From a virus (taxonomy: Duplodnaviria; Caudoviricetes), in the IMG/VR virus record IMGVR_UViG_2926558313_000004, positions 32,001-96,000 of that record: a stretch of DNA of 64,000 nt; one strand, given 5' to 3'. Position 1 is the stretch's first letter, and each line of letters opens with the position of its first letter. Made by a program: the position numbers and the translations under genes. Below the pieces are notes generated by a model, which worked only from the letters and a program-made list of their open reading frames with translations, was not told the origin of the DNA and did not search any database. Below are positions 1,683 to 36,484 of this stretch, piece after piece.

Positions 1683-2360
1683 GTGATTTTCCTTTCTGTA
1701 TTTTTCTATGCTCATCCTTCAAAATGATGCTTTTATTTCACTACACTCAAAATTAACTGCTTAACTTTATCAAATTCACTATCCTTTATTAAAATTTTGT
1801 CATCTGGATTAGTAGCAAAAAACCCAATTGTCACGTAAACGTACTCTCTCACACACTCATCGAAATCCTCCTCGAATTCAATGACTTCTTTCCACTCTGT
1901 CCACTCTAGAACAACGTTTGCAGTGAATTTAAATTGTTTTAAATCACTTGTTTTCACGTTAGGAAGCTTTTGATTGCAACAGTGACAGTAGGCTTTAAGT
2001 GTTTTATATTCCAGTATTACGAAGTTACTCTCTTTTTTCACAATATTCACACCTTAATATAATTTTTATTTTCACCCTTTACTTATTTTTCTTTGAAATT
2101 TTAACTACATAATCCTTTTGTGAGAATACTTCAATGATATTATTGCGTCGTTTAAGCATGTCTTCCATAGTTTCATAAAACCTAAGTTGTGTTTTCTTTC
2201 CAGTTAAACTTAACATGAAATAACCTTCCAGTTGCGAATGGCAAACCATATAAAAATTATGCTCCCTATGACCACCTGAGCCAAATTGAATGATATCCCC
2301 AACTTTTATATTATTTAATTTACTGTTATCTACTGTAACATTCATTTGCAAATTCTCCTT

Positions 2361-2555
2361 TTATTTTAATTTATTTTTACTCATATCAAATACACATCGA
2401 ATAAATTCATCTTCTGATATTTCTCCCTCTATTACCTTTCGGATCAATCCTTCTTCGGCTTGGTTGAGCTTTTTACCTTCAATTTCTAAAGATGCTATGG
2501 CATTGCGAAATGAGTATGCTTGCTTATCCTCTTTATGCTTTTTGAATACAATCAA
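2361..2555 (-). CDS. VbhA-family (Fic) antitoxin-like protein, orphan
   Basis: NAIASLEIEG carries the (S/T)xxxE(G/N) inhibitory motif; C-terminal GEISEDEF. Confidence 0.7.
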   Translation of the reverse strand: MIVFKKHKEDKQAYSFRNAIASLEIEGKKLNQAEEGLIRKVIEGEISEDEFIRCVFDMSKNKLK

Positions 2556-2937
2556 CCCCTATATCATTCTTCTTATTAATTTATTTAACTTCACTCTCTT
2601 TTTAAAATAAGCGATTTCTTCTTCGGTAGAGCTATAATTAATTTATTTCTTTTATTTAGATTTCTTCAAACTTAACTTCATTCACCTGCTCCACTGGTGT
2701 CATCTCTGTGATAGTAGTACTTCTAACAAATAATTCAATTGTCTCATAAAATTCCGATTCTACATTATATGTAACCAAATTTAAAATTGCATATCCTCGA
2801 TCCCTATCATAAATAACTGTATGTAACTCTTCATGTGAATTAATCAGAAAACAACCTTCTCTAAAAAGATCTTTATTCGTTGAGTCATTTCTCAAGATTG
2901 AATATTTCATTTGTAACAACTCCTTAAAACTCTTCTT

Positions 2938-3111
2938 TTATTCAATGAATACTTCTGGAAATAGCTCTTTAACTGACACCTTCGTTGATGCGCCATCATC
3001 ATCCGTTATATAAATACCAGTCTCCCCTTTTGGAACATTAGTTTTTACTTTTATTCCATAGGACTCTGCAGATTTCAACATATCTTCCTTGATAATTTTA
3101 AAATCATTCAT
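2938..3111 (-). CDS. Hypothetical 57-aa protein not in the ORF track (MNDFKIIKEDMLKSAESYG...)
   Basis: Open frame with RBS GAAGGGA; flanked on both sides by junction palindromes (2925-2940, 3128-3143). Confidence 0.65.
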   Translation of the reverse strand: MNDFKIIKEDMLKSAESYGIKVKTNVPKGETGIYITDDDGASTKVSVKELFPEVFIE

Positions 3112-6100
3112 ATGAATTATTCCCTTCTCAAATACTCCTTTTAAATTGAGTCTAAATCAAAGTCTGCATATTCACCAATCAACTTCCCATTTAAATAAAG
3201 TTCTGTTGTAAATAACATCTGTTTAAGTTGAATATCATTTTCTCCTTTTATGACTACTAACTCGAAGTTAGAAGGTTTGTCACTAATTGAAACTCCATTT
3301 ACTCTCAACGTTTGAATAAACCATTTATCTTTTGAATTTAATTCTGCTGTCATTTAATCACCACTCCATTCTCCATATACACCAATTTCTTCTCCCGCTG
3401 ATCCTTTTGCCACGCTGATTGATTTGTGTATTCTGGCTTAATTGGCTGCGCTTTTTCATATTGTGAATGTCCGACTTCTAAGTGATTAAAACTTAATTTA
3501 TTTTCTTTTGTTTTACGATACCACAGTGTTACTGGCTCCATTGGTCATCACTCTCCTTATTCAAATTGATTAAAGCGTTTGATAAAGAATGGATGTTTTT
3601 CCTTCATCATTTTTTCTTTTTCAAATTTTATAATCAAAGGTTTCCATTCTTTAAAATAAGCAAATAAAAACACAGCAATACCAATGACTAAGAATATTGG
3701 TGATACTACATATTTCATAAATGTTAAATCTAATAATGGTTCGTCATATAATCTAACTGTCAAGATTAAAAATGAAATTATTGACATTAGAAATCCCGCT
3801 CCGACTATTTTCAATAATGCTTTTTTTAGAACGATCATATCTCGAATAAATTTACTCATTTCCAACCCCCGCTCAATTAAAAAATATATTTTAATCAACT
3901 TTATTTTCAATTTACAAGAATACGCAATTCTTCCAGACTCATCTGATTCACTTTCTTATGCGCTTGCTCAAGCATCTCTTTCATTTCTTTCTTATAAGAA
4001 ACATTCTTTTCATATTCTTCTTTAGATAACCACAAACGATATGAACATCCGTCTGGAATTCCATATTGAACTTGGTGTGTCTTTTGATCAACTTTATAAC
4101 GCACTTTAGACTTTTCATAATACCAAATATATGCGCTCGTTTTATTCGCTTCTAATACGATCATTTCTTCAAGTTTCTGCTCGTGATCAATATCTCCCCA
4201 AAATTTACTCACTGTTTCGAGCCATACTTTTTGTCCAACCTGTAGAGGTACTTTTTTAGACATTTTGTATTATCCTTTCTCAATTATTTGAATGTTGCTT
4301 TTTAATTCTCTTACCATAAAACTTCACAAAGTCCTCAACGCTCATTTTTTGCGTTACGAGTTTACCACCCATATATAACTCTTCAAAGTCAATATAAATT
4401 TCCCCATTCTGAATATATGGTAAGGTTTGAGCGACTATTTCATCTTGACAATCTACCTCCTCCAAGATCAAATCATATAAAGTAGATAACATTACTTTTA
4501 TAGTCTCATCATATTTTTCTAGCAGATCATTTATATCTTTTGTGACTTCTTGAATATTCAATAATATCCCTCCAAAGTTTCACAGATTATTTTATTTGTG
4601 GAATAACCTTGTCTAAAACTTTCTGTAGCACCTTATCAAGATAATCCAGCAAATCCTCTAATTTATATGCGGCTATTGTTAGCAGAAATAAAGGCAGCCA
4701 TATGGGACTCGTTAGTATCAAAACAAACAATCTCACTTTAAGCATAAGTCTATGTGATTTTTCCGTATAAAATCTACTTACACCTTTTAGATCGTGCCTA
4801 CTCCTCATTCCTTCAATTCACCTCATTTCAATTTTAATTTTTTTAATAAATAATCACCAAAACTTCCACCATTTTTTATTGTGAGTTTTAACTTGAGATA
4901 TTTCATTATGCTTTTCATGACGCATCATAGAAATAAATTCATCAATAGCATCTTCTTTCGCATTTAAATTTATTTCTTTAATTATTTTGTCTGTATGATA
5001 TGTAATTGTATTATCTAGTCCGTACATAACATCTTCAATAACCACCTCATCATTATTAATGTTAACTTTGTTTCCCTTTCTAAATTTAATGGTCATATCC
5101 TCTTCATGAAAAACTAACCTTCCTTTTAACCTGTAGTATTCCATAGGAAACTTCATTGTAGATCCCACTGGTCTAGAAATGTTAAGATATTCTTCACGAA
5201 GTCCAAAATCATCAGTTGTAAACGTCGCTCTATTTCCCATCATCCATTTATTCTCAATTACTTTACCTGTAAAATATGATTTTATTTTAAATACACCTCA
5301 ATTCAGATTCTAATAAAACAGGCATTTTACACAATAACTAAAAGTTTTTTCAGATTTTAAAATCATCAACAATACCTATTCTCGAACTCCCTGACATCAT
5401 TGAAAATTCTTTTCCATGATGGTGACGTTGGCTCAAAACATTTCTCTAGTCGTCTAACATTACTTTCTTGCCTTCTTAGCTCATCTTTCGCTGGTATTAA
5501 ATCGCCAAACGAGGCATTTAAAATAGCTGTGATACAATTTGCTTCATGTTCATTTAATTCTTGCTTGTTATTAAATTTTTCTATTGCACGATGTGCCAAA
5601 TTATAATCAACATTCACTTTCATATTAGATCCTCCTCAATGAACATTTAGTCAGAATATTGATCAATCTTCGTGATATTCGTATGCTCGTTGTACTTCAT
5701 CGAACTCTTCTTTTGGCAATACATCTTTAGCAACCTGACACCAATAACCTAAATCCTGTGCTGCTTCAATTAATTCATTAATTGCTTGCTCTTGTGAGAT
5801 TCTTTTCTCATCAATAAACAACTCGCCCTCTGTGTTTTTTGTTAGCATATGTGCTCCTTTTTTATGTAAACATACTTTTACTTCTTCCATTTTCAATTCC
5901 TCCTAATTTAATATAATTTAATTAATTTTATTTACTGGTTAATAACTTTCTTTGAATTCAGATTACCACAATGCGTCTTTTGTTTCAATAGTTATTTTTA
6001 TTTTATTTATTAAATTCACTTTAAATCACTATGTCGTATTTTAGATAGTACTATGATACAGCTTAAGAAATAACTCTTCATTAATTTTAATGACCTCTTC

Positions 6101-8750: not shown

Positions 8751-9838
8751 TCTTTACTTCCTCTCTTCAACTTTTTAAAAGTCTTTTCATTTATTTAATC
8801 ATCCCAAAATTTATTTCCTTTAATGATGTGCTCCACAATAATTTTCACAATAATCGGAAACCAAAACAAGGTCACAAATGAGTAAACAGTTGCTAATATT
8901 TTTTTATCCCCAATCAATTTCACTAATAAATTCAAACTATCCAAGAGGTTTGATTCGAGTTTATCTAATTCTTTGCCATTCTCATACTTAATTATAGTGT
9001 GATCCATTACTTTTACTATACATTCTGACATTACAATCCCAAAGAAAAAATATCCACCATATATAATACTGATCATGTGACAACCTCCTCCGTATTCATC
9101 TATATAGGGTATTCATTCTAATTAAGAATTATTAATAGTTGTAAGGAATGGTCGCATTTAAAGAAAATAGTGAATAACAGAAACATTTTTTAATTTTCTA
9201 TCCCTTACTTCTCCTTTCATTAAAAGACCGTTTTTAATTAAATATATTCCCCTGCCGTATAGTTTTCAACGATTCCTTTCTCAGTCAAATCCAACATAAT
9301 TTTTTCAACTTTGTCTTTTACCGTCAGAGCGAATTTAAAATTTGGGTCTTGTGATAAGTAATATTGATAATCATAAGGTTGTAAAAAGTTTTCATCTAAT
9401 ACGTCAATTTTAAAACTACTATCTTCTTTTTTAACTGTGAGATTGAATGTAATATCCTCTTCAACTGTTTTACAATAATGCCAATATCCTTTTCTATACT
9501 CTGTGAAGGACAATTCTCTCATTTGCATATCATTTAATATGTTTACTTTCATAATTTTACTCTCCTTTAGAAAATTATTTAAATTGTAATTCCCCTTTAA
9601 AATAATTGGATAAAGCTTCATGAATATCAATACAGCTTACTTCTCTGCTCTTTTGTTCTACTTTTAAATTACCTGTTATCATTTGTTCATCATCATAAAG
9701 AATTTTAAAGTTAACCATATCTCTATATTTACCAGTAACATCACATAAAACAGTATTCACCTGATTGATAGTAATATAACCTTTCATATTCCCTCCTATG
9801 ATTTTTTTGATTAAAATGAGAATATTATATTATTTAAT

Positions 9839-13185: not shown

Positions 13186-13207
13186 TCAGTCCATAAATAC
13201 TGGACTA
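13186..13207. terminator. Hairpin at the yopR-like stop
   Basis: AGTCCA-taaatac-TGGACT. Confidence 0.4.
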
Positions 13208-14179
13208 AATTTCGTATAACTTCTTGATGTTTTCTATGTTGACATCCTCTTTGATGCCAATAAGGTTGTAATCCATCTTGCCTTGCAGTTTTGATTTTTT
13301 ATGCCCGAAATTTTGAACAATTGTTCTCAAGTCGTTATTTGTTAGCTCCCCTGTTTCTTCATATATATCCTTTCCCACTTTTATCATGCCACTTCTTGCG
13401 ATATTTGTCGGCGTGAGATAAGGATAGTCAAAAAACTTTTTAAGCATTTTTACTCTAGTATAAAGTGTCATATTTCCGACTGGTGCATTTTCATCTAATA
13501 CCCGACCATTATCAATAGATCGGATAATAAAATCATTGCGTATTAATTTCTTTTCTGGATTTGCTCGTTGAAAAACGGATTCTCCGTTATTAACAATGTA
13601 TACAGATTCTTTATAAGCTTCCGTAATTATTCTTAAACACCTATCACTTACTTTTACCTCCCTTTCCATCTCTCCTCTAACTTTTATAATATTATTATCA
13701 AAGTCTATGTCTTTATAATGTAAATTTCTAATCTCACTCAGTTGTGATCCTTTCAATCCTTCAAATAGCAACCGGAAAACAACCTTGTCTTGTCCATTAA
13801 CTAACTTCTTATCTTCTAGTTCTGCCAACTCTTCTTCAGTAAGAAACTGCTTTTTGCTATGGTCAATTAAACGGAACAAGGAATCTCTAGTTAAATTTGC
13901 AATTGGATTAATGGAGCTATTAGAATATCCATGAGCACTAGCCCAGTCTATATAATTTTTAAACACATTTGCTGCCATAGCTATAGAGCCTAATGATGGC
14001 TGAGCCATGTCTCTTAAGGTATCTTCAATTTCTGCTCTAGTAAAAGAATATAGGTCTTTCTGGAGCGCTCTTTCATTTCTTTCAGCCCCTCTTAGCTTGT
14101 ATCTATAAATAACTGCAGTATCTGCATCATAATTTTTTAAAAAAGCTTCTTTGATTTTTTCGTTGTACAAATTAGACAC
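13205..14179 (-). CDS. yopR: Tyrosine-recombinase-fold master repressor, YopR/MrpR/SroF-like
   Basis: LYNEKIKEAFL start; LLFEGLKG..LSEIRNL; lacks the canonical catalytic R and HxxR; third gene of the yopP-Q-R triad. Confidence 0.8.
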   Translation of the reverse strand: MSNLYNEKIKEAFLKNYDADTAVIYRYKLRGAERNERALQKDLYSFTRAEIEDTLRDMAQPSLGSIAMAANVFKNYIDWASAHGYSNSSINPIANLTRDSLFRLIDHSKKQFLTEEELAELEDKKLVNGQDKVVFRLLFEGLKGSQLSEIRNLHYKDIDFDNNIIKVRGEMEREVKVSDRCLRIITEAYKESVYIVNNGESVFQRANPEKKLIRNDFIIRSIDNGRVLDENAPVGNMTLYTRVKMLKKFFDYPYLTPTNIARSGMIKVGKDIYEETGELTNNDLRTIVQNFGHKKSKLQGKMDYNLIGIKEDVNIENIKKLYEI

Positions 14180-15551
14180 CTACCTTGTATTTACTCAAAT
14201 CAATATTTTCAAACACTTCTTTTATGTGTTTCCGTATCCCTGCTGGAGATTTACCTTTCAACTCTTGCCAATTCTCCTTATTAAAGTCGATATCTTTTAC
14301 AATATCAGATAGTAACTCAATTTCAATACCCTCATCTTGCATTCGTTTAGCTAAGCAGACAAAACCATAAAACATAGTTGGTCTGTTAATTTCACTTTTA
14401 TATCTTATCTCTTTAATATCGCTGATGAATTCATCAGGAAACGAGTAACAAAGATTATTGAAATACTTAGTCAAATACTGACCAGTTTTAATAGCTTGAC
14501 CTCTATTTTCCATTTCAAAAAATTCTTCTACGGCATCCACTAAAATTCCGAAAGTAGTTAATTCATCAGACTTAACAGTATTCTCAGACGTAATCTTTTC
14601 TTTTAATTCACTACCTGACTTTTTAAGAAATTCTACAGCTACAGTAGATAACTTTTCTTGATCCATCTCCTTCATTCGAGAAGTAGTGATATCATTAAAT
14701 GTATTAATTTCAACAAACACTTCTTTTGCTTCGGCATCAGTGAGATTCTGTATCTTTATGATAAACTCCATGTCTTTATTTGGATTTTCATGCTGCCCTT
14801 CAACTGTTGCTGTAAAACGGTGAAATCCGTCAATGCAGTCAAATAAAGTCCCTTTTGTAATGGTTAATTCTTTTGTATCTTCATCGTAGGAGATTTCTTC
14901 CCCATCATCTGAACTTCCCAGGCGGGCATTAAAAGTTAATGTCGTACTTGATAATTTCCCTTTTAAAAATCTGTTTTTGATTCCTTCGATGCTTCTTCTA
15001 AATATTTTTGGGACGGGAATAAAGGTTTCATCATCAACCTGTTTGACTTTGCCACTTCTTTGTACGTTAGGATTATATTGAATCTGTTTTCCATTGCTTA
15101 ATAATCGCATTTCTGTTACGGATATTTTACCCGTATAGCCATCGTGCAACTTTTCGAAACTACTCTTGAAAGTATATGGAAATTTGATTTCTTCCGCCTG
15201 ATAACCCGTAAAAGTTGTTTCAATTTCCTTCTTCTCTCTTTCATTATAAAAATGGTCTGGATTCAGTCTTTGATTACCCGTTGTCATGTAAAGCTGCACT
15301 GAAAAAACATACAGCTCTTTATCGTCTAGTTGTGGAACTTCCTTTTCGGGATCATTTAATACAGATTGAACTCTGCCTCCCAGCACTTTAAACTCTGCCA
15401 TCAGATCCTTGTATTTACTAACCATATCTTTTTTTGTTTTTATTGTGGGAAGTATTTCAATCAATACACTCTCTAATTCTTTTCTTTCTACTTTCACAAT
15501 GTGACACCTCTCTTCAAAAGACATTTCAATTAATTTTGTTATTAAATTCAA
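14172..15551 (-). CDS. yopQ: YopQ/SroE-like protein with a DndB/DGQHR (ParB-Srx fold) domain
   Basis: YNPNVQR, TLTFNA, CIDGFHR motif; 459 aa; synteny. Confidence 0.8.
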   Translation of the reverse strand: MNLITKLIEMSFEERCHIVKVERKELESVLIEILPTIKTKKDMVSKYKDLMAEFKVLGGRVQSVLNDPEKEVPQLDDKELYVFSVQLYMTTGNQRLNPDHFYNEREKKEIETTFTGYQAEEIKFPYTFKSSFEKLHDGYTGKISVTEMRLLSNGKQIQYNPNVQRSGKVKQVDDETFIPVPKIFRRSIEGIKNRFLKGKLSSTTLTFNARLGSSDDGEEISYDEDTKELTITKGTLFDCIDGFHRFTATVEGQHENPNKDMEFIIKIQNLTDAEAKEVFVEINTFNDITTSRMKEMDQEKLSTVAVEFLKKSGSELKEKITSENTVKSDELTTFGILVDAVEEFFEMENRGQAIKTGQYLTKYFNNLCYSFPDEFISDIKEIRYKSEINRPTMFYGFVCLAKRMQDEGIEIELLSDIVKDIDFNKENWQELKGKSPAGIRKHIKEVFENIDLSKYKVGV

Positions 15552-15608: not shown

Positions 15609-16682
15609 TTATAAATTCGAATTGAGGTTTCTTAGTAATATAATTTTCGCAACTTTATTACTATTAATTAAGTCCAATAACTCTTCTTTACTTAGCGATT
15701 CTAGAGCATCGCTGTTAAGAAATTTATCGAAATCTAACACACCTATTCTCTTGTATTTATTTTCTTTTATATATCTTTTTGTGACATTGAAATCTGAGTG
15801 ACCTGCGAATTCCATTGTCGCATGAGGATCTTTTGAGTTTTCATAAAAAATAGTAATCGCAGTTCCACGTATGCTATGGAAAGAGACATTTCTTTTTTCT
15901 GAAATATTCATTTTGATTTTAAGTTGATTCATTAGTTTCGATATATGATTCTTGTTAAACGGAAATACTACCTCGTCATTAACTTTATTATCAATTAATT
16001 CTTGAAAAAAGTCTTCATCTACATAATGAATTTTCCTCCGCTGCCCTTTTCCTCTTAATTCGATTTCATAATCTCCTTCTCTTGTGAGAATAAAATCGCT
16101 CCACTTCAACTTTAAAATTTCTTGCTGTCTCAGTCCGGTGTGTAAAGCGAACTTAATCAGCAATCCTTGAATAATTCGATTTTTAAATCTAGGCATTCCC
16201 TCTTTGACCATTGGGGCAATCTTTATCATTTCTTCTACTTCTTCCTTATGGAGTAAGCCGTAATTTACTTCTACGCTCTTAAGCTTTTGCATTTTACTAA
16301 TGAAGCTAATGTCTATATCGGCTAATAAACCAAATTCTATCTTCCTGCTATTTATATAGCTAAACAATCCAGTTATTGTCGTTAACTTTCGTTTTATTGT
16401 TTTATTAACCGAACCTTCATCCTGTAAATGAGCAATAAATTTATCAATATCGCTAACAGTAACTTTAAAATCATGTTCGATTAAATTTTCCAGCTCTTTT
16501 CCTTTTGTGATTTTAAAGAAATGTCTTATGTCACCCAAGTAGTTTTTAATTGTATTTTCGGATCTTCCGTTGCTCTTTAAATACATCATAATTATCTCTA
16601 AACAATTAACTTTATTTATATGGACTAATTGTAAGCTCATCTCTTTCATCCTCCTCAAAATTATATTAGGTTTATTATACAA
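15609..16682 (-). CDS. yopP: Tyrosine recombinase, YopP/SroD-like (start probably about 16649-16640)
   Basis: SAM-like N-domain (SENTIKNY); full catalytic set GLR, RGKG, FHSIR, AGH, RY. Confidence 0.85.
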   Translation of the reverse strand: MYNKPNIILRRMKEMSLQLVHINKVNCLEIIMMYLKSNGRSENTIKNYLGDIRHFFKITKGKELENLIEHDFKVTVSDIDKFIAHLQDEGSVNKTIKRKLTTITGLFSYINSRKIEFGLLADIDISFISKMQKLKSVEVNYGLLHKEEVEEMIKIAPMVKEGMPRFKNRIIQGLLIKFALHTGLRQQEILKLKWSDFILTREGDYEIELRGKGQRRKIHYVDEDFFQELIDNKVNDEVVFPFNKNHISKLMNQLKIKMNISEKRNVSFHSIRGTAITIFYENSKDPHATMEFAGHSDFNVTKRYIKENKYKRIGVLDFDKFLNSDALESLSKEELLDLINSNKVAKIILLRNLNSNL

Positions 16683-18257: not shown

Positions 18258-18565
18258 TCCATCCCTCTCCTTTCTATATCACATTATCACTCTTTAATTC
18301 ATTAAAACTAAAATTTTAAACACAATTATTATCCTAGCTCTTTTAAATTTCTCATTCCAATTCATACATACTTCTAATATCTATACAGATTTCATGTGCC
18401 TTATTTAATTGTTTTTGCGCCTGCTCAATTGAATTAATATCCTGATCATTCATGATATTTTGGTTCGCATACCCAATTAGAAATTGAATTTCTTCGACTT
18501 TCTTTAATATGATCTTTGTATTCCCTCTAGCTTTCATTCTCCCCCACCTTTACTCTTAGCTTCTA

Positions 18566-20598: not shown

Positions 20599-23500
20599 GA
20601 CTATCCCTCATTTCAATTGAGTATATAGTATATTATACTCAAAATTTCCATTGTTTGAAATATTAAGAGGGGTGAAACACTCCTTATTTTTGAATCATGA
20701 TTACCTTTAATCAAACTGACATTTCAACTAGATTTATGACTGTCTTTATATTCACTAACTGACATTTCTTTTAACTTTAATATATTGTATTTGTCCAATA
20801 AACCAAGCAATTCTCTCGGTTCTAAATGATCAATTGAACCAATATCAACCTTATCGATAATTAATCTCTCGTCAATTCCTCTATTAACCCACGTAACTTC
20901 TTTCATATTATCACACTCCTTCAAATAGATATTTTATTCAGCTTTTTTATTCACAAAGTAGAGAAATAATTCTTCAATTTCTAGAATGTTCTCTTCAATA
21001 TTACCTTCATTGTTATTAATAAAAGCTAAAGCCTCTGTATAAGGTTCTCCATCAAACGGGGGAGACACTGCTGTTAAATTGTCAATTGGTACTCCATAAG
21101 CTCGTATAGCTTCATCAACCTCCCTTGATAACCTGTGAGCTTTCGCTTGTGCTTTTGCATATTGCCGCAGCTTCTGTTTAATTTCATATGGCATTGCTTT
21201 CATATTTAAATTTCACCTACTTTATAAGTTTGCGTTCAATTTTTACTTTCTAGCATATGATCCCATCTATACTCATAAGGAAAACCAATAAAAGAACTTT
21301 CAAACTTCTTTACTCCTGCCTCTTTTAGTTTTTCTTTTGTCCACACAGGCTTATTATTTAAGAAATGTCCTAATGTACTGAATCCATCATTATCGCCCAT
21401 GTAAAACATTTGATTTAAGTACTGAGAGTTTTTTACATCTTTAACTAAGATTGCAGTTTCAATTTGAAATACTCTTCCTACACCACTAGAAATGTCATCT
21501 TCTTCTAATGGATAGCCAGTTAAGTTAGCGAAAACCACAACTTCTTCATTTTCATACATCTCAAAATAGTAATCGAAATTATTATCATTGAATTTATTCT
21601 CTATGATTAACTGGTCAATGTCATTAATTTTCATCTCACTAAGCTTTTCTATATATTCAACTTCAATCTCTGGCAGTTTCATATGAGTTTACTCTCTCCT
21701 TTTCGCATTAGAGCTTTCCTCTATAGTGTCTATTCTAAATTCGTATTCATTCACACGTTTATAATACATAAATCTGTTGTAGTCATCTCCCCAGTAATAT
21801 CTACCTAAGACTTTTCCATTTTCCCAAACTTCTACATAGTAATCATCTATACTATGATTGTCATCATGTATAGAGGCTATTGCTTTTTCGAGATCAGTTC
21901 CTGCATAGATTGTTCTAGTTGGCTCATGCATATCCACTTCAAAAATTCCCAAATACACCTTCGTCATTTTATATCCTTCTCCTTAAAACTCTGATATTAT
22001 CTGGCTAAAATCGATAGAGCGTTTAACTCATTTCCAATCCATTCATATTGAAATTTACTAAACAGTTGAATAGTTAACTCATAACCCTCTTCGACTTCTA
22101 CAGCATCACTTATAACACCGATAGTTTTTGTTTCAAAGGTATTAGAAAGGTCTACTCTGTCTAATACAGGTTTATTTAGATAGGAAGATAGTTCACCATC
22201 TTTTGGAACTATCGTTTTAAACTTGACAAAGCTCATATTCTCCCCTCCCTCCTTTTCTTTAAAAGTGAAATTTTATTAAATATACTGCACCACCGCTATC
22301 TGCCTTGATTCCTTGAGGCACTACTGCTTCACTCTTTACTTTAGTCTTACTAATGCTAAATTCTACAATTGCTGTTTACATTTCTTCATCTCTCTGAAGT
22401 GAGCCTCATCTGAATTTATCATACTTACCCTCTTTCCATTTTTCTTTTGAAACCTGTAGTACGATTAACCATCCATTGCGAAATCTACATTTTTCATATA
22501 CTTGGATATATTCCTCTGACTCAGAAATGAATCTTTCCATCAAAGTGCTCCTCCTCTCACTGTAAAATCATACTTTTAAATAGTTATTTCTTTCTTTTGC
22601 TTACTACTTCACTAACCCCTAATACGCCCTCTTTATCGCAAAAGATATTTGTAAAAGAAGCTTCAGTTACAGCTTCAAAAAGGTCGCTATCTATTAGCTT
22701 ATTGGCGTAGTCAGCATTTTCAGATGAAATAGCCATTCCAATCCTATCATCTGTTTTACTTAATGACAGATATACTTTAAATACATAGTTCAACTTTTCT
22801 AAAGGATGCATCTCCCTCAATGTATCTGAGCTAACTGTATTAAAGCCTTTACTTTTGAAATACGGATCTGACAATAGAATCACCCTCCAAATTTAAAAAT
22901 GGGAAATCAGATTTTATTCTTCATTACCTTCATAAAATTCATATTTTACCAAAAGTTATTCACTAAGAAACCTTTCAAAGTCTTCCATCATAGTATGTAA
23001 ATATGAATGTCCACCGTCCCATCCAACGCTATTCAATTCCTCTTCAAGAGCACGAAGGTTTTCTAGAAATGCCTCCGCTTCGGCTTTTTGACCATCTAAG
23101 AATCCCTTATCATACTGTTTTAACTTTGCCATTGTTCCCCTCCTTCGCTTTAGTGTCGAATTGTGTATTAAAGTTCTTCAAATTCCCTCTCCTTATCAGC
23201 AAGAAATTCTTTGTGATGCTGTAAAATAACGTCCCTCACTTCATCTTTTTTCTCTCCAATTAAATACATTTTTTGCGGCTTTGTTGCTGAGGATAAGGTG
23301 ATTTCATCAGATTTAAATAACTCTTCCCAGTTTTTTATATTTAATCGTTCGGTTCTGATTATCGACTCCAGAACTTTAGCCCTTTGTAACGTTTCCATGT
23401 CCATTTTCTCTCACCTTCCTTCACAAAATCACTCTGAAATACACCAGTTCGATTTTTACTTTGCTGTTATACATAATTATACCATTTCAGCCATTCGCTC

Positions 23501-26500
23501 AGTTAGCCCTTTATTCAAATTAACGCCCTCTAAATTCATCTTTTTTGTATATGTAAATCCTTCTTCTAAGTCTGCTTCTACGCATTCTTTATATTTCAAT
23601 CCTCTATAGCTTTCATCATTAAACGGTATCTTATATAAATAACCCTCTACAAAATCATAAGCTCGTTCCTCAGTTTTAAATGACTCTACTGGCATGGATG
23701 AGAACTCCATATAGACATCATAATATCCATGTGCCTCTACAACCTTAGTATTATTAATATTAGCAATTTGCTCTCCTTTCATTATTATCACCTCTCCGAA
23801 TAAGTCTTTTCTTCTTTCTTGAATTAGCCACTTTTACGAAGTGGTCAATTTCATTTTGATCATTTGCTTCAATAGCATTATTATATAATTCAATTTGTTT
23901 ATCTGTTAAATATTCGACCACTTCTTCACTCATATTTATCACCTAATTATTTTATATTTGTTTATTCATCCGCACACTCGAAATGATTTTCTTGCTTCAG
24001 CTACTTCCATCATACGCATTAAGACATCTACAAAATCACTATCTGACCTTGAATGATCTTCATAAGCCATAGCAAGTTCTAACTGCTCTTTTGGTGTCAA
24101 ATAAAACATTAATCCGTTAAACTTTTCATAAGTTTCAATATATTCATTATACGCATCGATTTCAATTTTCATCTCATCAACACTCATCTTCTCTCCCCCT
24201 TGCAATTTATTTCCTTAAGTTAATAATAACATGGTTTCCACATCCTAACAATAAAAATCTTAACATAATTTAATTTATTTTATTTACAAAATTCCAGTTC
24301 GAATTTTCGTTCGCTGTTATACGGTTTCGCGCTGTCTAATATCATTCAAAATTTCGTCTTTAGATCTTCTTACTCCAATTTCATTTATAACTTGAATTCC
24401 CAGAGAAGTAAAAACTTCTTCGAGAATAGGGAAGTCAACTTCATCATACGAAAACTTTCCATCGGTCGATGCATTTTGAATGTTGCTTAATAAACGTTTC
24501 AATAAATCATCCTTACTAATTCGACCGTCAACCATCCAAGCACTATAGAAGATATTACCAATAAATTTTCTTAATTTTATTTCTTCCATAAGCTTCAAAT
24601 CGATCATTTTTTGATAAATATCAACTACCATACTCAGGATATTATATTTATCAATATGATTTACTGGAATGTCATATAATTCAGAAGCAAAATACTTTAA
24701 GTCTTGATCATAGTTAATTCGTCCGAAGTGTCCTTTGGTGTATAATATAAGCTGCTTTTCAAAATGATTAAGTTCTGTTTTCATGTTACACCACCCTTTA
24801 ACTATATTTATTTTTAATTTCTACCATAACTAACATTGCATAGGTGAAATAGGATTTATCACCGAACATTTTATACAGCGTCATATAATCATTATATTTA
24901 TCAAGAAGATCATCAATGCAGTGATTGTTAGATAGTTCAAGTTTAATTATCATATCAGCATTCACCAGCCTCATAATTTTATTAATTTGCTCCTGAGAAA
25001 AAGCTTCTGGTTTATTATAGTTATTCATTTTTAAGCTCCTATCTGCCTTCTTAAAATCAGCATTTTATTAAGTTTCATAGTCTCCACCTAAAATTTCATC
25101 TTTGGTGAATATAGGCAAAATCCATAGCAACCAATATGTAGTACTTTTTCTTTTCTGTTTTCCATAATATCCAACCTTTTTAAAATAATATTTTTCAGTC
25201 TTTCTTATCATGTTATCAACTCCTTTAAAGTTTTTTAATGCCAATAAATTCATCTGGATAAATATATTCACTTAAATATCTTTCTTTATCCCATACATCC
25301 AATCTGTCATAACCCAGCCCTTCATTCTCTACTTCTCTAACTTCCACTATGTCACCGTTAGACCATAGCATCTCTCCCTGTCTAATTGCATTCACATTAA
25401 TAATTTTTATTTTTTCTCCTTTTTTGAAATTAGTAATTAACATTTTTGTCATCCCCATTATTAAATTTAATTGAAATTACATTTTTATTTAAAGCTGTTC
25501 AATAAGTTAACTTTTCTTTCCGCTTCTTCACTGCTCGCATAGCTATAAGGAGAATGACCACTTTCAGTATGATAGATATGATAGGCTCCGGTTTCATCTT
25601 CAAACTCATAATACCATTCTCCAATTTTCAATTGCTCTTCTGTTAATTTCATTAGATCTCCTCCTCTAAAATCCCTATTTTATGTAGCTGCTGTTATTCA
25701 ATCTCACTTACTGATTCAGTCCAAAAACAAGACCCTGTATTGTTGAAATAAATGTCAACCTTTTCATTCTTAAAGAATTGTATTAGTAAATCATAAAAAT
25801 CTGTCGTTGGGTTAATAATCTGGTCTTCCATATTCAAATATCTATCTTTAACCAACTTAATATCTACACTACTATGATTGGGGATCAGTCTTATACTACT
25901 TCCTGACTGTTCCATTAAATTGTTAAATTCATTAATCATTTCTTTTGAAATAACGCTCATCATTATTCCCTCCTGTTTTATCCAATCATTTTGATTATAC
26001 TATGTCTTGAATATGTTCACATCGATAATTTCAGCAATAGTATGTAGCTGCTGTTATACACTTAATGATCGAACTATTCATTAACCTTTTTAAACCTTCC
26101 ATTAATGTACATTTCTTCTCTTACATATCTTCTTGCTGATTGATACGAGGGAAACCAAAGGGCGTTTGTTGTTGAATCACTCCAATGGTTAGTGCAGATT
26201 GTAAAAAAGTCTTTTCTTACTTCTGTTATCGTGACAGTTTCTCTATCAGTTTCAATTCTCCATTTATTCAATTTTTACACCCTTTCTTAATGAACATAAT
26301 CACTCTTATGTTCAATTACTATAAAATGATTCTTTTAATTAAATTGCTCAGACTTCTTTTTAACTGTTAAAATAAACTCTCCTGCAACTCCTTGCTCGTA
26401 AAAATAATTTTCAAAATCATCTAAGGTGTCAATTAATGTCATAATCATATGTTGTTCAGGCAACATTTCTATTTCAAATTTTACATGTCCTTCATCATTC

Positions 26501-26820
26501 ATTTCAATATAATATACACTTCCCGAAGCTTTATAATGCATCATGGTATATTCTACTTCAGGAAAACGTTGCTCGATAATGTCTTTTGTTCTAAAATCAA
26601 AAGTATGAATACAAGCAACCATTGCTTGCTCTAAAATGTCATTAAAAGTGACTTTTTCTTTATCTATTTCCAAGAATCCTATTACATCTGCAACTTGTTC
26701 ATAAACCCCATCACTTAGATTATAGATGTAGTTTTCCTCAAAATTATTTCTAGCATATTTTTGAATCATTTCTTCACGGCTCATTAGTTTATTCATTAAT
26801 ACCCCTCCTGATTTTAGATG

Positions 26821-27931: not shown

Positions 27932-28693
27932 CTAATTCCTCCTTTCTATTATAAACGTAATCTCATGATCGTTTGACAGATCACCTTGTAATACCTCGAT
28001 TAAGTATTGCGGATTACGAATAAACTTTTTAATGAGTGTAACGCTTGTGTATATCATGATGTTTCTATAAATTTTATCGTGGTCACTTACAACATCGTTA
28101 GAGTTGAATGCCCCGCTAAGATCAAAGTAGACATATGCTTCTCTATCTCCTTCTGTGAACGATTCATCACCGTTATTAGATATATCCACCTTTATTTTTG
28201 TTTGGTAGAATAATCCGTGTTTTAATTTTTGGATAATCGTCACGCCCTCTAATAAAGCTTTTTCCAGTTGATCGCTTGTCATCTCAACTGTTTTGTAATC
28301 AATTGTCTTTTTTAGTGACGGGCGCTGCAATCTATCCCATTCTTTTATTAGAGTCTCTTCCAGTTTCCTTTCTTTTTCGGGAGGAGACTCTTTATTATTT
28401 TTTGAGTTTATTTCCATTTCTACATAGTCGAAAATTATATCGACGTGTACATATCCCGCCCAATATGGATCGTAACCTGGATCAATCGACTCTACTGTCC
28501 TAGATTTAAAAAACAGGATCGCTTGCTCGTCACTTTTTAGATTATGACATAGAGACGAAGGGATTACTGTGTAGTGCATGTTGGTATTTTTGTCAAGTAC
28601 TGTGTAATCGGTCAAAATATCTTTCAGATGATAGTCTGATCGAGAAAAATCCTTACCTGTTACCTTTAACATATCTTTGTGTAATTGTTCCAT
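27932..28693 (-). CDS. Hypothetical protein
   Basis: 253-aa ORF with RBS GGAGG. Confidence 0.7.
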   Translation of the reverse strand: MEQLHKDMLKVTGKDFSRSDYHLKDILTDYTVLDKNTNMHYTVIPSSLCHNLKSDEQAILFFKSRTVESIDPGYDPYWAGYVHVDIIFDYVEMEINSKNNKESPPEKERKLEETLIKEWDRLQRPSLKKTIDYKTVEMTSDQLEKALLEGVTIIQKLKHGLFYQTKIKVDISNNGDESFTEGDREAYVYFDLSGAFNSNDVVSDHDKIYRNIMIYTSVTLIKKFIRNPQYLIEVLQGDLSNDHEITFIIERRN

Positions 28694-28803
28694 ATCATCC
28701 TACCTCCATTTATTTTATTTTTATTAATTTCGTTTTTAATCTTTCCAGCAATCCTTCGATCAAGCTGTTATACACTATAACTAGTCGAAGGATTAAGCAA
28801 AAA

Positions 28804-29370
28804 TTAAATATCTAACTCTTTAACTTTGATCGGATTACTTGCGACAACTAACCGCTCACTAAGAGCTACGTCTGTTAAGTCGCCATCTTTTTTATAATCA
28901 AAATCTTTAATTGTAACAGCCGTATACATATCGCACTCAGTAATCAAGTGTGGAGGCAGTGTGCCGACAACGTGCTTGCCTTTAATATCCTCTGCTGTTA
29001 CATTCTCAAAAACGGGCGCTAACCACCAGTCTTTTTTAAGAATATCAATCGTGCCTTTATGACGGCTTGCGATCACTGTTTTATCTGGATTGGAATACTT
29101 AATAAGATCAAGCTTATCTACAACCTCAATTTGATATTTGCGTACTGGTAAATCAGCATCAAAAATCTCTTGAGATGTGTTAAATATTGTGCCTCTCGGC
29201 AGTTGCAGTGCATAAAACTCTGTTACTCCTTGCTCTGCTAAAATAGCAGGTGATAGCGACGATAAAACAACCTCTTCTGTTCCTTGACTGAAATCAGATA
29301 ATCCCTTAATAGCTTCAAATCCACTTGCTACAACCTTTTTTTCTGATAATAATTGTTTAATAGTTTTCAT
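28804..29370 (-). CDS. Csx16-like protein with tandem domains (putative ring nuclease)
   Basis: C-half IASRHKGT...DIKGKHVVGTLPPHL matches the Csx16 SRH.G...V.GTLP.HL pattern; N-half VVLSSLSPAILAE...YALQLP looks like a degenerate copy. Confidence 0.55.
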   Translation of the reverse strand: MKTIKQLLSEKKVVASGFEAIKGLSDFSQGTEEVVLSSLSPAILAEQGVTEFYALQLPRGTIFNTSQEIFDADLPVRKYQIEVVDKLDLIKYSNPDKTVIASRHKGTIDILKKDWWLAPVFENVTAEDIKGKHVVGTLPPHLITECDMYTAVTIKDFDYKKDGDLTDVALSERLVVASNPIKVKELDI

Positions 29371-30827
29371 TTTAAATTCTCCTTTTTTTATATTTTTAAT
29401 TTTATTTTTCCAGTGATTCTCTTAGCTGCCTGTTAATCAACTAAGAGAATCTGACAAGTATGAATTAGATATTCTCTACTCTGATTGGATTATCCCAATC
29501 ACAAGCTTCTGACTCGTCTGAAGTATCAAAATTAATTGTTTCCCAGTAGATCATATATTCCTTATCATTTTCATCGACAGCATGAGCTTTATACTCACTA
29601 CCATCATCTGAAACATATGCATCTTGCAATGTGCGATACTCTTTACCCTCAAATTCTACAATGGTTGAATTTCCGCTATTTAATTCTTCAAACTTTTTCA
29701 TAATGACTTCCTCCTTTTGTTTTTGTTTCCTTATCTTTAACTTAATTTTATACTAAAAGTAGTATAAAGTCAATAAATTATTATAATTATTTTTATTTTA
29801 TTTATAGGAAATGTGTTTTAATAATGCCTGTTCCAGCCATGTAAAATAATCCTGCTAAAACAATACCTGTCAATATAATAATAGACCAATCAGTTTTATC
29901 TTTATTTTTAATTTGTTTATGTAGCACAATTATCAACCCCATATCATTATTTTAGTTTTATATTGTGAATGAAAAACCTTCCCTCTTACGTTCAGATAAA
30001 ATAGTCATTAATACCGAATCTTTCTTTATAACCCACTACGTTCAGATAATAAAGTCACCTATTTACTTTTTAAAGATCGGAAAGTAACTATGAGATGCGA
30101 ACCCGCAACGTCCAACCTCTAAAACATATCCATTGTTATTTTCCGTTACACAGATCTCCTTATAAGATGAGACATATTCCATTTTCTCTTGTACTTGCTT
30201 AGATATAAAATACAATCCTTTTGAATTCAAATAATTACAAGCGTCCTCTGCTCTTTCAAAATAAAGTTCTCTCCCCCAGTCTTTTTTAAATACGCCAACA
30301 TTCATACCGTTAATTATTTCTCTCATTTTTTACCTCCTGTTATTTAATGATTTAATTATCGCTCATTAAATCAGATATATCAATAGTATCCTCTAAATTC
30401 ATCAACCTGTCAGACATAGCACCCTCTAAATCGTGTTCATTAATCCCAGCTTTGAGTAGTCTTTTTTTTGATTACCTTTTGTTTTTCGAGGGATAATTGA
30501 GATATAAAGATTGTTTTGTTATACTCCATCTATTATAACTCCTTATATAATTAACTTTAAAAGATTGAATTTATCCGAATACAGTATTTATTATTTCCCC
30601 AGTTTTTACATTTAGGAATTTTTCGTTTTTATAATAATCTAAGTAAAACATTTTAATAAAACTTATACCTGTTTCCAAAAGCCCGAAATCATACACCAGA
30701 TTATCCACTTCAATTTTAATCTGATGATTATCTAAGTTGTAATTTATAAGCTTAATGTCTGAAGCCTCTACAAGTTTTTTAATAAACATTTTTATTCCTC
30801 CTTCCAACTTAAAATATTACTTTTATC

Positions 30828-31091
30828 CTAATTAGTTTTTAGGTGTATTTCTCCATTGTCACTAACCTTCAAAGTTGTAATTCCAACATACTCTAAAACT
30901 TCTACCTCTAACACTTGAAACATTTCTCCATTTGGATTACAAAATTTATCATTTACAATTCTCTCAAAATGTCTAATACTTCCGTTTTTCATTTCAACTT
31001 TAAACCTAACCTTATGTCCCTCAAATTCTTTTTGTCTGTTAACAAATTCATCTATGCTCATTTTCATTTCAATTCCTCCAATTTTTTTCAT
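30828..31091 (-). CDS. Hypothetical protein, paralogue of 35499-35705
   Basis: Shared MSIDEF..RQ.EFEG.K.RFKVEMKNGSI.HFER.VNDKFCNPNGE.F.VLEVE.LEYVGI. Confidence 0.8.
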   Translation of the reverse strand: MKKIGGIEMKMSIDEFVNRQKEFEGHKVRFKVEMKNGSIRHFERIVNDKFCNPNGEMFQVLEVEVLEYVGITTLKVSDNGEIHLKTN

Positions 31092-32022
31092 AAAAGGTTT
31101 ATTTTATTATAGCTTCCTATGCTTCTTGTTCTGTCCGAAAAACTGTAAATTCATTCCTAGTCTACTTTTATCTTTCTTCTTTTTTAAAAAATCTTTTGCA
31201 AGCTCAATTTGAGAAGGCTTTAACGCTTTAATAATTGGACTTTATTCATCTTTGATCGTCCGGCAATTCCTTTTTCCTTCGCTAGTTCATAAAGCTCTTT
31301 CATTGTCATATTAGATAGTTTTTTGTTATTCATTTTTATTTCCTCCCTGTTTATCTTTAATTTTATTTTATATCATTACTAGTATAATGTCAATATATAA
31401 TTTAATTAATTTTATTAAAATGCCAGTGATAATTTAAAGATGCTGTTATAGAAATGTTAATTACGAACCAATCTAACAAAATTGATCAATTGCTCCTGTG
31501 AATAGTTTTCTCGTTTAAATCTTGGTAAATTAATTTCGTTCAAATCAAATTCTTTCAAGCCTAATTCTTTTAGGCGTCTAAAATAACTTTTCAGGCTAAT
31601 CCATTTTAAAGCTGTTATACTTGTTTCCCATTCGCTAAAACGAACGAGTGAACCGTCTACAATATTATAATTATATTTAAAAATATTTCCCGTGTTCGTA
31701 TTAACTTCTACGACTTCATAGGAACATGAGCCATTGTTGTATTTTCTGAATGCCTTGATATTTTTCATATTAAAAACCTCCAGTATTATTTATACTTTGC
31801 TGTTATAAGCTTATTTGTTCGGCTTCAATATTTAATTCATTCACCCATCTATTATGTGCTTCTATTCCTGCTCCTACGTTACGGCAGCACTGAGGGCGCA
31901 AAGGACATTGCCCGCAATTATTTTTATAGTTCTGTTTGCAAATATCCTTTACTTTTTGTTTTAATTCTTCATACATGCTTAAAACCTCCACCAGTTCGAT
32001 TTTTAATCTGCTGTTATATAGA

Positions 32023-34173: not shown

Positions 34174-34290
34174 TGTTTATCATCCTTTCGAAAGCTGTTT
34201 ATTAACTATCTTTATCTTATACTACATTTGATATAATGTCAATAATATAATTTAATTTGTTTTGTTTTTAAAATGTTGATTTTATGACAA

Positions 34291-34318
34291 GGAGAGTCAG
34301 CTATTCAGCTGATTCTCC
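34291..34318. terminator. Hairpin terminator
   Basis: GGAGAGTCAGCT-attc-AGCTGATTCTCC directly after the stop at 34318. Confidence 0.65.
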
Positions 34319-34662
34319 TACCCTTCCATGTTACATACATTACCGTTTCCATCTTCCCACATTTCATTAATTGGACAACTTCCATTGTCCAAGTCTTTGA
34401 TAATTTGCTCCATATCTTCGATTGTCGCTGGTGTGATTAATCCCAAAAAGTTTTCTTTCTTGTCGTAAACTTCAAAAGCGTGTAGACTATGGTCAAATTC
34501 CACTTCATTTACAATTACTAATGCCGTTTCCCAGGTTTTCATAATATAACCTCCTAATAGTTATTTATTAACTACCTTAATTTTATATCAGAAGTGGTAT
34601 ATTGTCAATACAATAATTTAATTCAATTTATAAAAACAGTTGTTTTTTTAAATTAATATTAG

Positions 34663-34694
34663 GGTTTCACTCTCTAACGTTAGAGAGTGAAACC
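34663..34694. repeat. Perfect 32-bp palindrome overlapping a stop codon
   Basis: GGTTTCACTCTCTAACGTTAGAGAGTGAAACC. Confidence 0.9.
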
Positions 34695-35498
34695 AAGAAA
34701 CAACTTTTCATACTTCCTTCTTTCGTATGTATCTTTGATTTCTTTGTTTACTCCGTTGATTGTTTCCCACATTCTGCTTTCTGTATCAATCCATAAAACA
34801 TAATCTTCGTTGTTTTTATAAGAACTAACTAATGTGATAACTACATTTAAATTATATACCGGCATTTTGATTCCTCCTAATAGTTATTTATTAACTATCT
34901 TAAGTTTATATCAAATGTAGTATAATGTCAATATATTTATTTAATTTATTTTATTTGCTGTTTAAAAAGCGTATTTTATTAAGATGAAGAGAAGGAGAAA
35001 CCAGCTTATTAGGCTGGTTAATTATCTAAGTAAATTGTTAATCTTTCTTTTAAATATGCCTTGTTTAAATCTAACCGTCTTGATAATTTCTGAATTCCTT
35101 CATCATTGAAAGTAAATCCATAGCCGTTAACATTTACGTATTCCTGCCATAATTTTCGACCTTCATGCCATAATTTTCTTTGTTCCATTGTCATATGTAG
35201 CAACCTCCAAATATTTTTTATTTGTTTTCTTACTTATTATATTACATGTTCATCTAACGAAATTCAAGTATTAATTTAATTTATTTTGTTTTAAAATCAC
35301 TGTTTTATCTTATTATTCTTGACAGAATTCTATATCATTTACATCTACAAAACACTCCCCTCCATCAAAGCGAACCAAAACTAAATCTTTTTCCCCTAAA
35401 TAGTTTACCTCTGTAATATAACCAATAATAGATGGATCACCTTTTCGTATTACTTTATCATGTAATTTAAATTTCATTATTTATCACTCCATTTTTTA

Positions 35499-35705
35499 TT
35501 ATTTAAATAGTGAAATAATCCCAACATATTCTAAAATCTCAACTTCCAGTACATTGAAATTTTCTCCATTTGGATTACAGAATTTATCATTTACAACTCT
35601 TTCAAAATGTTTAATACTTCCATTTTTCATTTCTACCTTAAATCTAATCTTACGTCCTTCAAATTCATCTTGTCGGCTGATAAATTCATCTATACTCATT
35701 ATCAT
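35499..35705 (-). CDS. Hypothetical protein, paralogue of 30828-31091
   Basis: Direct sequence similarity between the two ORFs. Confidence 0.8.
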   Translation of the reverse strand: MIMSIDEFISRQDEFEGRKIRFKVEMKNGSIKHFERVVNDKFCNPNGENFNVLEVEILEYVGIISLFK

Positions 35706-36484
35706 TGTAAATCACTCCTATTATTAATGATAAAACGATTGTTTTATATTAGTTGAAATTCATTATCTTTTAAGTACACTTTGCCATAATAATTTGCATC
35801 TAATTGAACTAAATAATATTCTTGATTATTATGTTTTTCTACTGCTTTGATTCGACCGTGACAACCTTCTAATAAATCACAAAATGAATTTTTTAATACT
35901 TTAATATTTTTATTTAACATAATTAACCACTCCATATTTTTAATTTTGTTTATTACATAAAACTAATGATTTATTTAACTATTTCCACTTCGTAACCTCT
36001 ATTTTCTACATAATCAATTTTCTTATCAATAGTCCATTTACCTGAATAGTAATCTTCATAATCTTTTTTGTAATACTCTTCGAAATCTGGGTCTTGTTTA
36101 TCATCCAACAAATGAATTTCACATAAGCTATCTAAAGTGTGATCTGTCCATTTATTCAATTGCATATCAAAAATTCTTATCATTTTACATTCCTCCGATT
36201 AATATTTTTAATTTCCTTACATTCAATAAAAAGTTATTCAGTTAATACAGCGAAAATGTTAAAATGCTGACTACTTTCATGCTTTATACTTACTAAAATT
36301 TTATCTTCTGCTTCCTGTAAGATTTCAACTATGCATTTTTCTTCGTGATCTGTGTCAAAGGCTGAAAAATACAGGTTTCCATTTTCAGTTTTTAGAAAGA
36401 TAACATTTTCAAAAGCGTATGAATTAAGGTAATTTATAATATCTTCGTTAGTGTAAGTATATGACATTTCTCACATCTCCCATT

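Follow-up and report, generated by a model that had tools for sequence, protein, structure and literature searches.

A spacing-specific intergenic dyad of SPbeta-like phages as a candidate site of gene-module exchange

The mosaicism of phage genomes is usually ascribed to random illegitimate recombination followed by selection, or to homology at conserved regulatory sequences. In engineering, heterospecific lox and FRT cassette exchange makes use of sites with identical arms and differing spacers, among which only sites with the same spacer recombine. Here we analyse a 16-bp dyad, TAAAA-N6-TTTTA, which recurs between the genes of a stretch of 64,000 nucleotides from a phage of the Caudoviricetes (IMG/VR record IMGVR_UViG_2926558313_000004, positions 32,001 to 96,000; the window, in what follows, is this whole stretch). 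The window corresponds to C5:32003-96002 of a 4.5-Mb genome of 46% G+C, in which C5:1 to about 148000 is an element of 31% G+C, a prophage of about 148 kb. A logic like that of the heterospecific sites would explain why the cores of the dyads are unique within a genome and conserved between genomes, but those sites are an artificial design, and our literature search found no natural phage system of such a kind.

Among known systems, the dif modules of Acinetobacter plasmids and the PeSL elements of T4-type phages come closest. The former are bounded by pdif (XerC/XerD) sites, as described in the accessible parts of three reports (PMC6449649, PMC13141974, PMC12907356). As with the dyads, there are many short Xer-type sites per replicon (11-bp arms, 6-bp centre), each bounding a module that is seen in varied contexts, and discrete, site-bounded modules in different contexts are also what we find in the SPbeta genus. 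The dyads differ in that they lie on a phage, in that their symmetric arms point to one recombinase rather than to alternating XerC and XerD halves, and in that their candidate enzyme is a phage-encoded Xer-like protein and not the host XerCD; moreover their cores are site-specific and stand in a fixed order, and exchange looks allelic and in register. PeSLs, in the available text of PMC2839356, are short conserved intergenic elements between small non-essential genes where insertions, deletions and replacements begin and end, a trait that they share with the dyads. A PeSL is, however, composed of a sigma-70-like promoter and a terminator stem-loop and recombines by homology, whereas the dyad has neither of these parts, is a palindrome of 16-28 bp, and keeps its core conserved at each site even though cores vary between sites.

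A further likeness concerns the arms. The accessible sections of a review (PMC5357621) give the arms of difH, the XerH site, as AGTTATGAAAA and AAAAGTTTGA, and those of difSL, the XerS site, as TTTCCGAAAA and TTTTCTTGAAA; inner arms GAAAA and TTTTC surround a centre of about 6 bp or more, and the inner arms of the dyad, A4 ... T4, have the same layout. Dimer resolution with FtsK relies on one dif site in the chromosome, whereas the phage has 30-40 sites with different centres.

The dyad in the window and in related phages

The motif is real, specific for its spacing, all-or-none, intergenic and phage-specific. The window contains 20 exact copies, against a mean of 1.87 (standard deviation 1.17, maximum 4) across 100 dinucleotide shuffles, so that the recurrence noticed by an initial annotation stands well above a shuffled background. 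All 20 copies are intergenic or touch just a stop codon, according to our own crude gene calls, and 81% of the window is called coding. Across C5:1-148000 there are 38 dyads with spacing 6; the remaining spacings between 0 and 20 yield 2-9 copies each, and arms arranged in other ways yield 0-15. The whole genome holds 62 exact dyads, 38 of them in C5:1-148000 and 5 in contig C35, and its host part has no peak at spacing 6 (24 copies vs 6-29 at other spacings); for this reason a host factor was rejected as an explanation. Contig C35 of this genome (G000), a separate, AT-rich contig of 23,354 bp and 32% G+C, probably belongs to the same element, as another piece of it, or to a related one.

At spacing 6, one-mismatch copies show no enrichment, either in the prophage (59 vs 53-90 at other spacings) or in SPbeta (41 vs 34-60 elsewhere), and the motif is therefore all-or-none.

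The dyad is a conserved, exact, intergenic element of a wide group of SPbeta-like phages that includes distant large siphophages of Firmicutes. SPbeta has 34 exact copies against 0-4 at other spacings, and the eight genomes of its genus that we compared (SPbeta, phi3T, Goe11, Goe13, Goe14, SPR, SPbetaL1 and SPbetaL8) have 30-37 copies each against 0-4 at spacings 3-9. For other phages the control was the count of the pattern read backwards. On this basis the motif occurs 30 times in Geobacillus E3 (control 7), 17 times in Perkons (control 2), 17 in a Staphylococcus SPbeta-like phage (control 8), 28 in Mammaliicoccus phi36 (control 1) and 31 in Clostridium c-st (control 7); Lactococcus PMBT69 has 8 (control 1) and Lactococcus 949 has 7 (control 3), while Tsamsa has 23 (control 3), Skywalker 18 (control 3), and Nate and Izhevsk 22 each (control 2 in both). 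Spacing profiles peak at the same value, with 30 copies at spacing 6 in E3 against 1-8 elsewhere, and 18-23 in the Tsamsa group against 0-5. No enrichment was found in four large myoviruses, where motif and control counts are equal: SPO1 (0 and 0), phage K (4 and 4), SBSphiJ5 and phiNIT1 (1 and 1 in each).

Pooled half-sites (n=400 for the SPbeta genus, n=76 for the window phage) give the same consensus on both halves, T(-6) Y(-5) T(-4) n n W(-1) TAAAA K, and those of the window phage fit the consensus of the SPbeta genus except at position -6 (T 38%). The full consensus, T-Y-T-n-n-W-TAAAA-K-N4-M-TTTTA-W-n-n-A-R-A, is about 28 bp long, and the 16-mer is its invariant inner part. In fact the dyad extends weakly to arms of about 11 bp around a 6-bp centre, an 11-6-11 layout like that of dif: two inverted arms of about 11 bp round a centre of 6-8 bp, as in Xer/dif sites, are what we find, with a spacing of exactly 6 and symmetric outer positions. 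The centre is variable, unlike that of the fixed-centre 16-bp ParB-parS palindrome.

With each site read in the direction of the genes, the dyad usually has a ribosome-binding site 5-30 nt behind it, in agreement with the initial annotation. The TAA of the motif is the stop codon of an open reading frame (ORF) of at least 45 codons at 7 of the 38 prophage sites and at 11 of the 34 in SPbeta; most other prophage sites lie 3-55 nt behind an ORF end, 8 of the 38 have no such ORF end, and extra stop codons also occur just upstream of dyads. Starting with TAA and sitting between a stop codon and the next ribosome-binding site, with these extra stops before it, the dyad could be nothing but punctuation of expression, that is a stop context with an A/T-rich leader, or an RNA hairpin or processing site, with no role at the level of DNA. 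We regard this as very unlikely. A spacing held strictly at 6, with outer arms that mirror each other on the two sides, points to a dyad in DNA; by our reading the aligned sites show no covariation at the positions next to the arms, on which ground an RNA hairpin was rejected, and a 5-bp A-U stem would be too weak for one. The motif is also absent from the host's own junctions, and punctuation leaves unexplained both the conservation of the cores and the breakpoints at the motif edges described below.

Promoter and terminator functions were rejected as well. In window positions 17000-36999 the dyads do not overlap any consensus of a sigma-A promoter or of an intrinsic terminator, where 6 terminator-like matches are all on the non-coding strand and at chance level, and neither kind of element is associated with the dyads. 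As to promoters for the phage RNA polymerase YonO, the available part of PMC5467207 has YonO starting the late operon at one site upstream of yonK, while most dyads are in the early region.

Module borders in the SPbeta genus

A close relative of the window phage was not found by megablast against phages, and just short matches were obtained among 60 relatives and then among 18 same-genus genomes; a protein-based search for related loci with three window-phage proteins gave nothing usable. Breakpoints were therefore analysed in the eight SPbeta-genus genomes.

At same-strand gene junctions, homology is confined to one side in 388 of 582 informative pairwise comparisons (67%) if the junction has the motif and in 876 of 3653 (24%) if it has not, the pairwise counts, which come from related genomes, not being independent of each other. 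The odds ratio is 6.3, and it is 5.4 where both neighbours are of at most 200 aa and 9.9 where they are of at most 120 aa. Counted by SPbeta junction, one-sidedness in at least one comparison is found at 18 of 20 motif junctions and at 31 of 92 others. A second analysis took 16-mers common to two genomes and scored their 40-bp flanks as alike at an identity of at least 70%. For motif 16-mers both flanks are alike in 231 cases, only the left in 121, only the right in 130 and neither in 193, while the figures for control intergenic 16-mers are 510, 1, 1 and 9. One identical 16-mer, core included, adjoins up to five left flanks and up to eight downstream genes; around TAAAAGATGCATTTTA, two types of left flank and two of right flank are found in all four pairings, and TAAAATATTCCTTTTA is common to SPbeta (116415) and phi3T (107932) with unrelated flanks. 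A preprint (10.1101/2020.05.06.055103), in its accessible part, places one 'non-homologous' laboratory recombination site after yosA, near this dyad of SPbeta.

The ends of alignments lead to the same place. Starts of blastn blocks cluster at -12..+3 and ends at +12..+27 relative to the motif, and 367 of 2412 unique block ends fall near it, in windows that make up 0.94% of the genomes, with 1.36 ends per site against 0.35 per control junction. In the Tsamsa group at least one flank is under 70% identity for 58 of 86 shared 16-mers. The initial annotation's expectation that breakpoints of gene gain and loss would be found at the motif is supported for the SPbeta genus, and we are highly confident that the sites are real module borders there.

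The cores follow a pattern of their own. Their order is constant along the genomes, and 22 of 52 slots between adjacent cores (slots common to at least two genomes) have at least two unrelated alleles. No 16-mer is duplicated within a genome, although few duplicates would be expected by chance anyway. At orthologous sites with both flanks aligned, divergence is 0.7% in the arms, 1.4% in the core (24/1692), 5.0% in the outer 6 bp and 3.9% in the flanks; since the core diverges less than the flanks, it is under constraint though it differs from site to site. At phi3T 89340 the core is reverse-complemented with respect to the conserved flank (TTATCA for TGATAA), compared with Goe11 90554 and others, so that the site is inverted in place.

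Between SPbeta 113664-115059 and phi3T 105167-106562 (L007, L009, L012) there is no differing position across the mtbP methyltransferase module of about 1.4 kb, whose left flanks are unrelated and whose right flanks are about 11% divergent; it looks like a recent module transfer bounded by two dyads.

The initial annotation had called the arrangement integron-like and had envisaged single-gene cassettes that are gained, lost and shuffled. Gain, loss and shuffling at the dyads are supported in the eight genomes, but single-gene cassettes are not: by our crude gene calls the motif is present at only 16 of 78 same-strand junctions in window positions 1-37200, about one in five, and the units are therefore multi-gene modules. 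A strict integron, with promoterless single-gene cassettes bearing attC-like sites, which are cut out as circles and enter a single attI through an integrase of the integron type, has in its favour that sites are at gene 3' ends and sometimes over the stop codon, in the proportions given above, that a tyrosine recombinase is encoded nearby, and that some single genes do lie between two sites, as do mtbP of SPbeta and the window's HU-like gene. It is nonetheless highly improbable, because the sites are of 16-28 bp and not folded attC sites of 57-141 bp with paired R''/L'' and L'/R' boxes, an attI/Pc platform is missing, and variation looks like allelic replacement of multi-gene units in fixed slots and not like insertion at one attI. 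The recombinase encoded nearby, a YopP-like protein, is not of the integron type either, with 21.2 bits against the integron integrase model (NCBIfam TIGR02249, integrase_gron), for which the cut-off is 265.

Candidate proteins and the favoured explanation

TAAAA-N6-TTTTA is probably, as far as sequence comparison can tell, a crossover site for the exchange of gene modules. Crossover would occur inside the 16-mer, between identical-core sites of two related genomes in one cell, and modules would then trade places in register, in the manner of recombinase-mediated cassette exchange with heterospecific lox sites; unlike cores would stop the sites of one genome from recombining together. The likeliest catalyst would be the YopP-like, Xer-like tyrosine recombinase of the window (15609..16682, minus strand; Pfam Phage_integrase, 5.8e-18), cutting at both core borders. 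Taken as a whole, dif- or lox-like sites that border exchangeable modules, with same-core crossover and a YopP-like catalyst, are the best explanation that we can offer, and we give it an even chance. For the window phage, module exchange is carried over by analogy from its relatives.

The best solved relative of the YopP-like protein is XerH (5jjv, E 4.7e-8), with which the R, K, HxxR, H and Y positions are aligned. It matches the NCBIfam XerA, XerC, XerD and XerS models, all below their curated cut-offs, which sets it apart from the enzymes of difH and difSL. Its homologues are present in all motif-rich phages tested, except c-st. SPbeta integrates by means of the serine recombinase SprA, and therefore YopP is not needed for integration. 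The initial annotation had named this protein as the possible recombinase; the aligned catalytic positions and the similar inner arms of the XerH and XerS sites speak for it, the enrichment of the motif in c-st without a homologue does not, and we propose only tentatively that it is the enzyme acting on the sites.

A second candidate is the YopQ/SroE-like protein of the window (14172..15551, minus strand; 33.7% identity to SPbeta yopQ by tblastn, at 14175-15497), which has no Pfam or NCBIfam match at the thresholds used; SPbeta YopQ/SroE has been described as ParB_N/DndB-like (PMC8612738). In place of module exchange as its function, the dyad could primarily be bound by a regulatory or architectural phage protein, such as SroE/YopQ or an HU-like protein, exchange then being a by-product of ordinary or short-homology recombination at the sole conserved islands. 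A palindrome of 16 bp with arm centres about one helical turn apart, strictly intergenic and often just before a ribosome-binding site or a promoter, is what such a protein might bind. Homologues of YopQ are present in SPbeta, E3, Perkons, the Staphylococcus SPbeta-like phage, phi36 and c-st, the last of which is enriched in the motif without having YopP; SroE is required for lysogeny, and its targets are not known according to the accessible text (10.1101/2025.11.27.690993); and the PeSL cassettes of T4-type phages, as far as the available text of PMC2839356 describes them, offer a precedent. Nevertheless we consider this binding explanation unlikely. The cores differ by site yet are about three times better conserved than the flanks, and one protein cannot read at least 30 cores; one-mismatch sites show no enrichment, as those of operators usually would; and the motif contains neither a sigma-A-like promoter nor a terminator. 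Moreover no YopQ homologue was found at E<=0.001 in Tsamsa, PMBT69 and 949, which have YopP and keep the motif. Finally, 16 bp is very short for homology-driven exchange, yet unrelated sequences meet exactly at the motif edges. The distribution of the motif is not matched exactly by that of YopP or of YopQ, and many other genes are common to these phages.

The initial annotation had offered a different binder as its alternative, the recombinase-fold master repressor MrpR/YopR/SroF, whose operators (SPBRE, a non-palindromic motif of 15 bp) the dyads would be; a protein of this kind is encoded at 13205..14179 (minus strand; Pfam MrpR_C_cat and MrpR_N_CB). In SPbeta a dyad does lie upstream of three MrpR-controlled genes, yorE, aimR and yosX. 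On the targets given in the accessible part of PMC10516654, however, 9 of 10 MrpR ChAP-seq promoter regions have AATATGTATA in common, which is unrelated to the dyad (the SPBRE core was here taken as the k-mer shared by the peak promoters, and not from the published logo), and about 10 peaks stand against 34 dyads in SPbeta. SroF, according to the available text of 10.1101/2025.11.27.690993, binds a non-palindromic box of 24-26 bp as a monomer. The alternative did not hold up, and is hardly credible at all.

Several points weigh against module exchange by a Xer-like enzyme as the function of the dyads. Invariance is limited to 5 bp in each arm, with only moderate conservation of the outer arms, and a recombinase arm would be expected to be longer. 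In phage c-st a search at E<=0.001 gave no YopP homologue, yet this phage has 31 sites, with a weaker spacing profile (31 vs 5-13) and weak outer arms. In the accessible part of 10.1101/2025.11.27.690993, yopP is part of the operon for lysogeny control and its neighbour SroE is described as a second repressor, so that a regulatory role of the sites is possible. The breakpoint evidence comes from the SPbeta genus and not from the window phage, and its counts, like those of the Tsamsa group, were taken on related genomes and are not independent; mosaic breakpoints are also frequent at junctions without the motif (the 876 pair events and 31 of 92 SPbeta junctions reported above). Block ends gather only modestly at the motif in the Tsamsa group, which is more diverged (22 of 1041 in 0.46% of the genome), and where one blastn block spans a site, identity steps of at least 5 points are found at 23% of sites and 21% of control junctions (p = 0.31). 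In the laboratory hybrid Hyb2 the switch from phi3T to SPbeta falls somewhere within a 1.4-kb stretch that is identical in the parents, the mtbP module from one dyad to 8 bp beyond the next, where the crossover is not resolvable. Of the 16 laboratory recombination sites in the accessible part of the Dragos preprint (10.1101/2020.05.06.055103), 15 are in ordinary homology.

In its most general form, module exchange would be a built-in trait of SPbeta-kind siphophages of Firmicutes, comprising SPbeta, Tsamsa, Geobacillus E3 and the Staphylococcus, Mammaliicoccus and Lactococcus relatives. These would carry 20-40 lox/dif-like sites, with the cores as addresses, and a Xer-like recombinase that would exchange modules between co-resident relatives without disturbing gene order, a natural counterpart of recombinase-mediated cassette exchange. 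To this generalisation we give somewhat less than an even chance. If it is true, the ordered dyads with their address-like cores would represent a dedicated mechanism of modular exchange, shared by SPbeta with phages of Staphylococcus, Lactococcus and Geobacillus; the conserved and so far unexplained Xer-like YopP would gain a function, and the mechanism would predict the entry and exit points of accessory genes such as methyltransferases and defence or counter-defence genes. It could be tested directly in the SPbeta/phi3T-B. subtilis model. A description of the motif was not found in the literature searched, outside which lie Lazarevic et al. 1999 and the supplements of the Dragos preprint, which may bear on it.

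Sites and neighbouring genes of the window

The initial annotation had counted about 30 palindromes between 1720 and 35973, an interval in which we find 17 exact sites. Thirteen of the 22 positions that it listed are exact, 5313 being really 5314; the other nine are unsupported, with one mismatch, a class that is not enriched, at 1720, 3128, 7218, 19394, 20921, 21984, 30558 and 35958, and at least two at 20711. Missing from its list were the exact sites starting at 3878, 18303, 34269 and 34963 within its range and at 57851, 58313 and 61938 beyond it. It had also stated that one arm supplies the stop codon of the upstream gene: all 11 stops that it gave are real ends of minus-strand ORFs, but just three belong to exact sites. 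These are 2925..2940 (core CTCTTC on the plus strand), 26322..26337 and 35731..35746, where TTA is the stop of the minus-strand ORFs 2938-3111, 26335-26796 and 35744-35920, respectively.

The genes from position 1 to about 52000 are on the minus strand. The site at 9221..9236 lies 1 nt past the end of the minus-strand ORF 9238-9621, and that at 25052..25067 adjoins the end of the minus-strand ORF 25068-25211. On the same strand, 22260..22275 is followed by the ribosome-binding site AAGGAGGGAGG, and 25667..25682 is immediately upstream of a GAGGAGG ribosome-binding site. The exact sites at 3878..3893, 5314..5329, 18303..18318, 22563..22578, 22933..22948, 30810..30825, 31091..31106 and 35292..35307 are intergenic. 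In the distal part of the window, 57851..57866 separates the gene for the YonO-type RNA polymerase (55249-57795), a hallmark of SPbeta, from that of the HU-like protein, 58313..58328 follows the HU-like gene, and 61938..61953 follows a ClpP-like gene. The HU-like protein, YonK, the MrpR/YopR-like protein (matched at 13208-14170) and the YopP-like recombinase (15612-16649) are further SPbeta hallmarks on C5:1 to about 148000.

Two sites stand just upstream, on the minus strand, of sigma-A-like promoters: 34269..34284, with an AT-rich repeat before the promoter at 34242-34214, and 34963..34978, before that at 34931-34903. Both promoters are strong (TTGACA-17-TAAGAT and TTGACA-17-TAAACT, respectively). 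Within 34214-34284, 34903-34978 and 35260-35307 (minus strand) each dyad is followed by a repeated A/T-rich element, about AAAACAAAATAAATTAAATTA, and A/T-rich stretches resembling this element precede other dyads of the prophage.

An IS200/IS605 pair is present in the early region of the phage (window 10383-11925, minus strand), consisting of a TnpA of the Y1 type and a TnpB/OrfB whose TNB domain is Cas12f-like. Further on, the window encodes a FtsK/SpoIIIE-like ATPase (47459-49669), a tubulin/FtsZ-like GTPase with a small upstream gene (53003-54384), and UvrD-like and RecD2-like helicases (42336-47316); the FtsK/SpoIIIE-like, tubulin/FtsZ-like, UvrD-like and RecD2-like genes have no counterpart among the features annotated in the SPbeta record. 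In one sequencing dataset 13 short contigs fall on the window stretch, 12 of the 13 being at least 99% alike, and no joints were seen, while two further datasets gave no contigs; these results have no bearing on excision or expression.

A stretch of 26-32 nt at window 30018-30049 resembles (94-100% identity) a repeat in another genome of the same genus (G009:C135:113243-119751) that G047 and G051 have as well; the last 13 bases of the phage stretch recur as a partial copy at 29987-29999. The repeat in G009:C135 has about 100 copies with a period of about 65 bp and looks like that of a CRISPR array, in which two spacer-like stretches match the phage perfectly, one of 39 nt (window 23371-23409) and one of 36 nt (36503-36538). 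To judge from these matches, the phage may carry a solitary CRISPR repeat, possibly an RNA anti-CRISPR or a mini-array, and may itself be targeted by the G009:C135 array.

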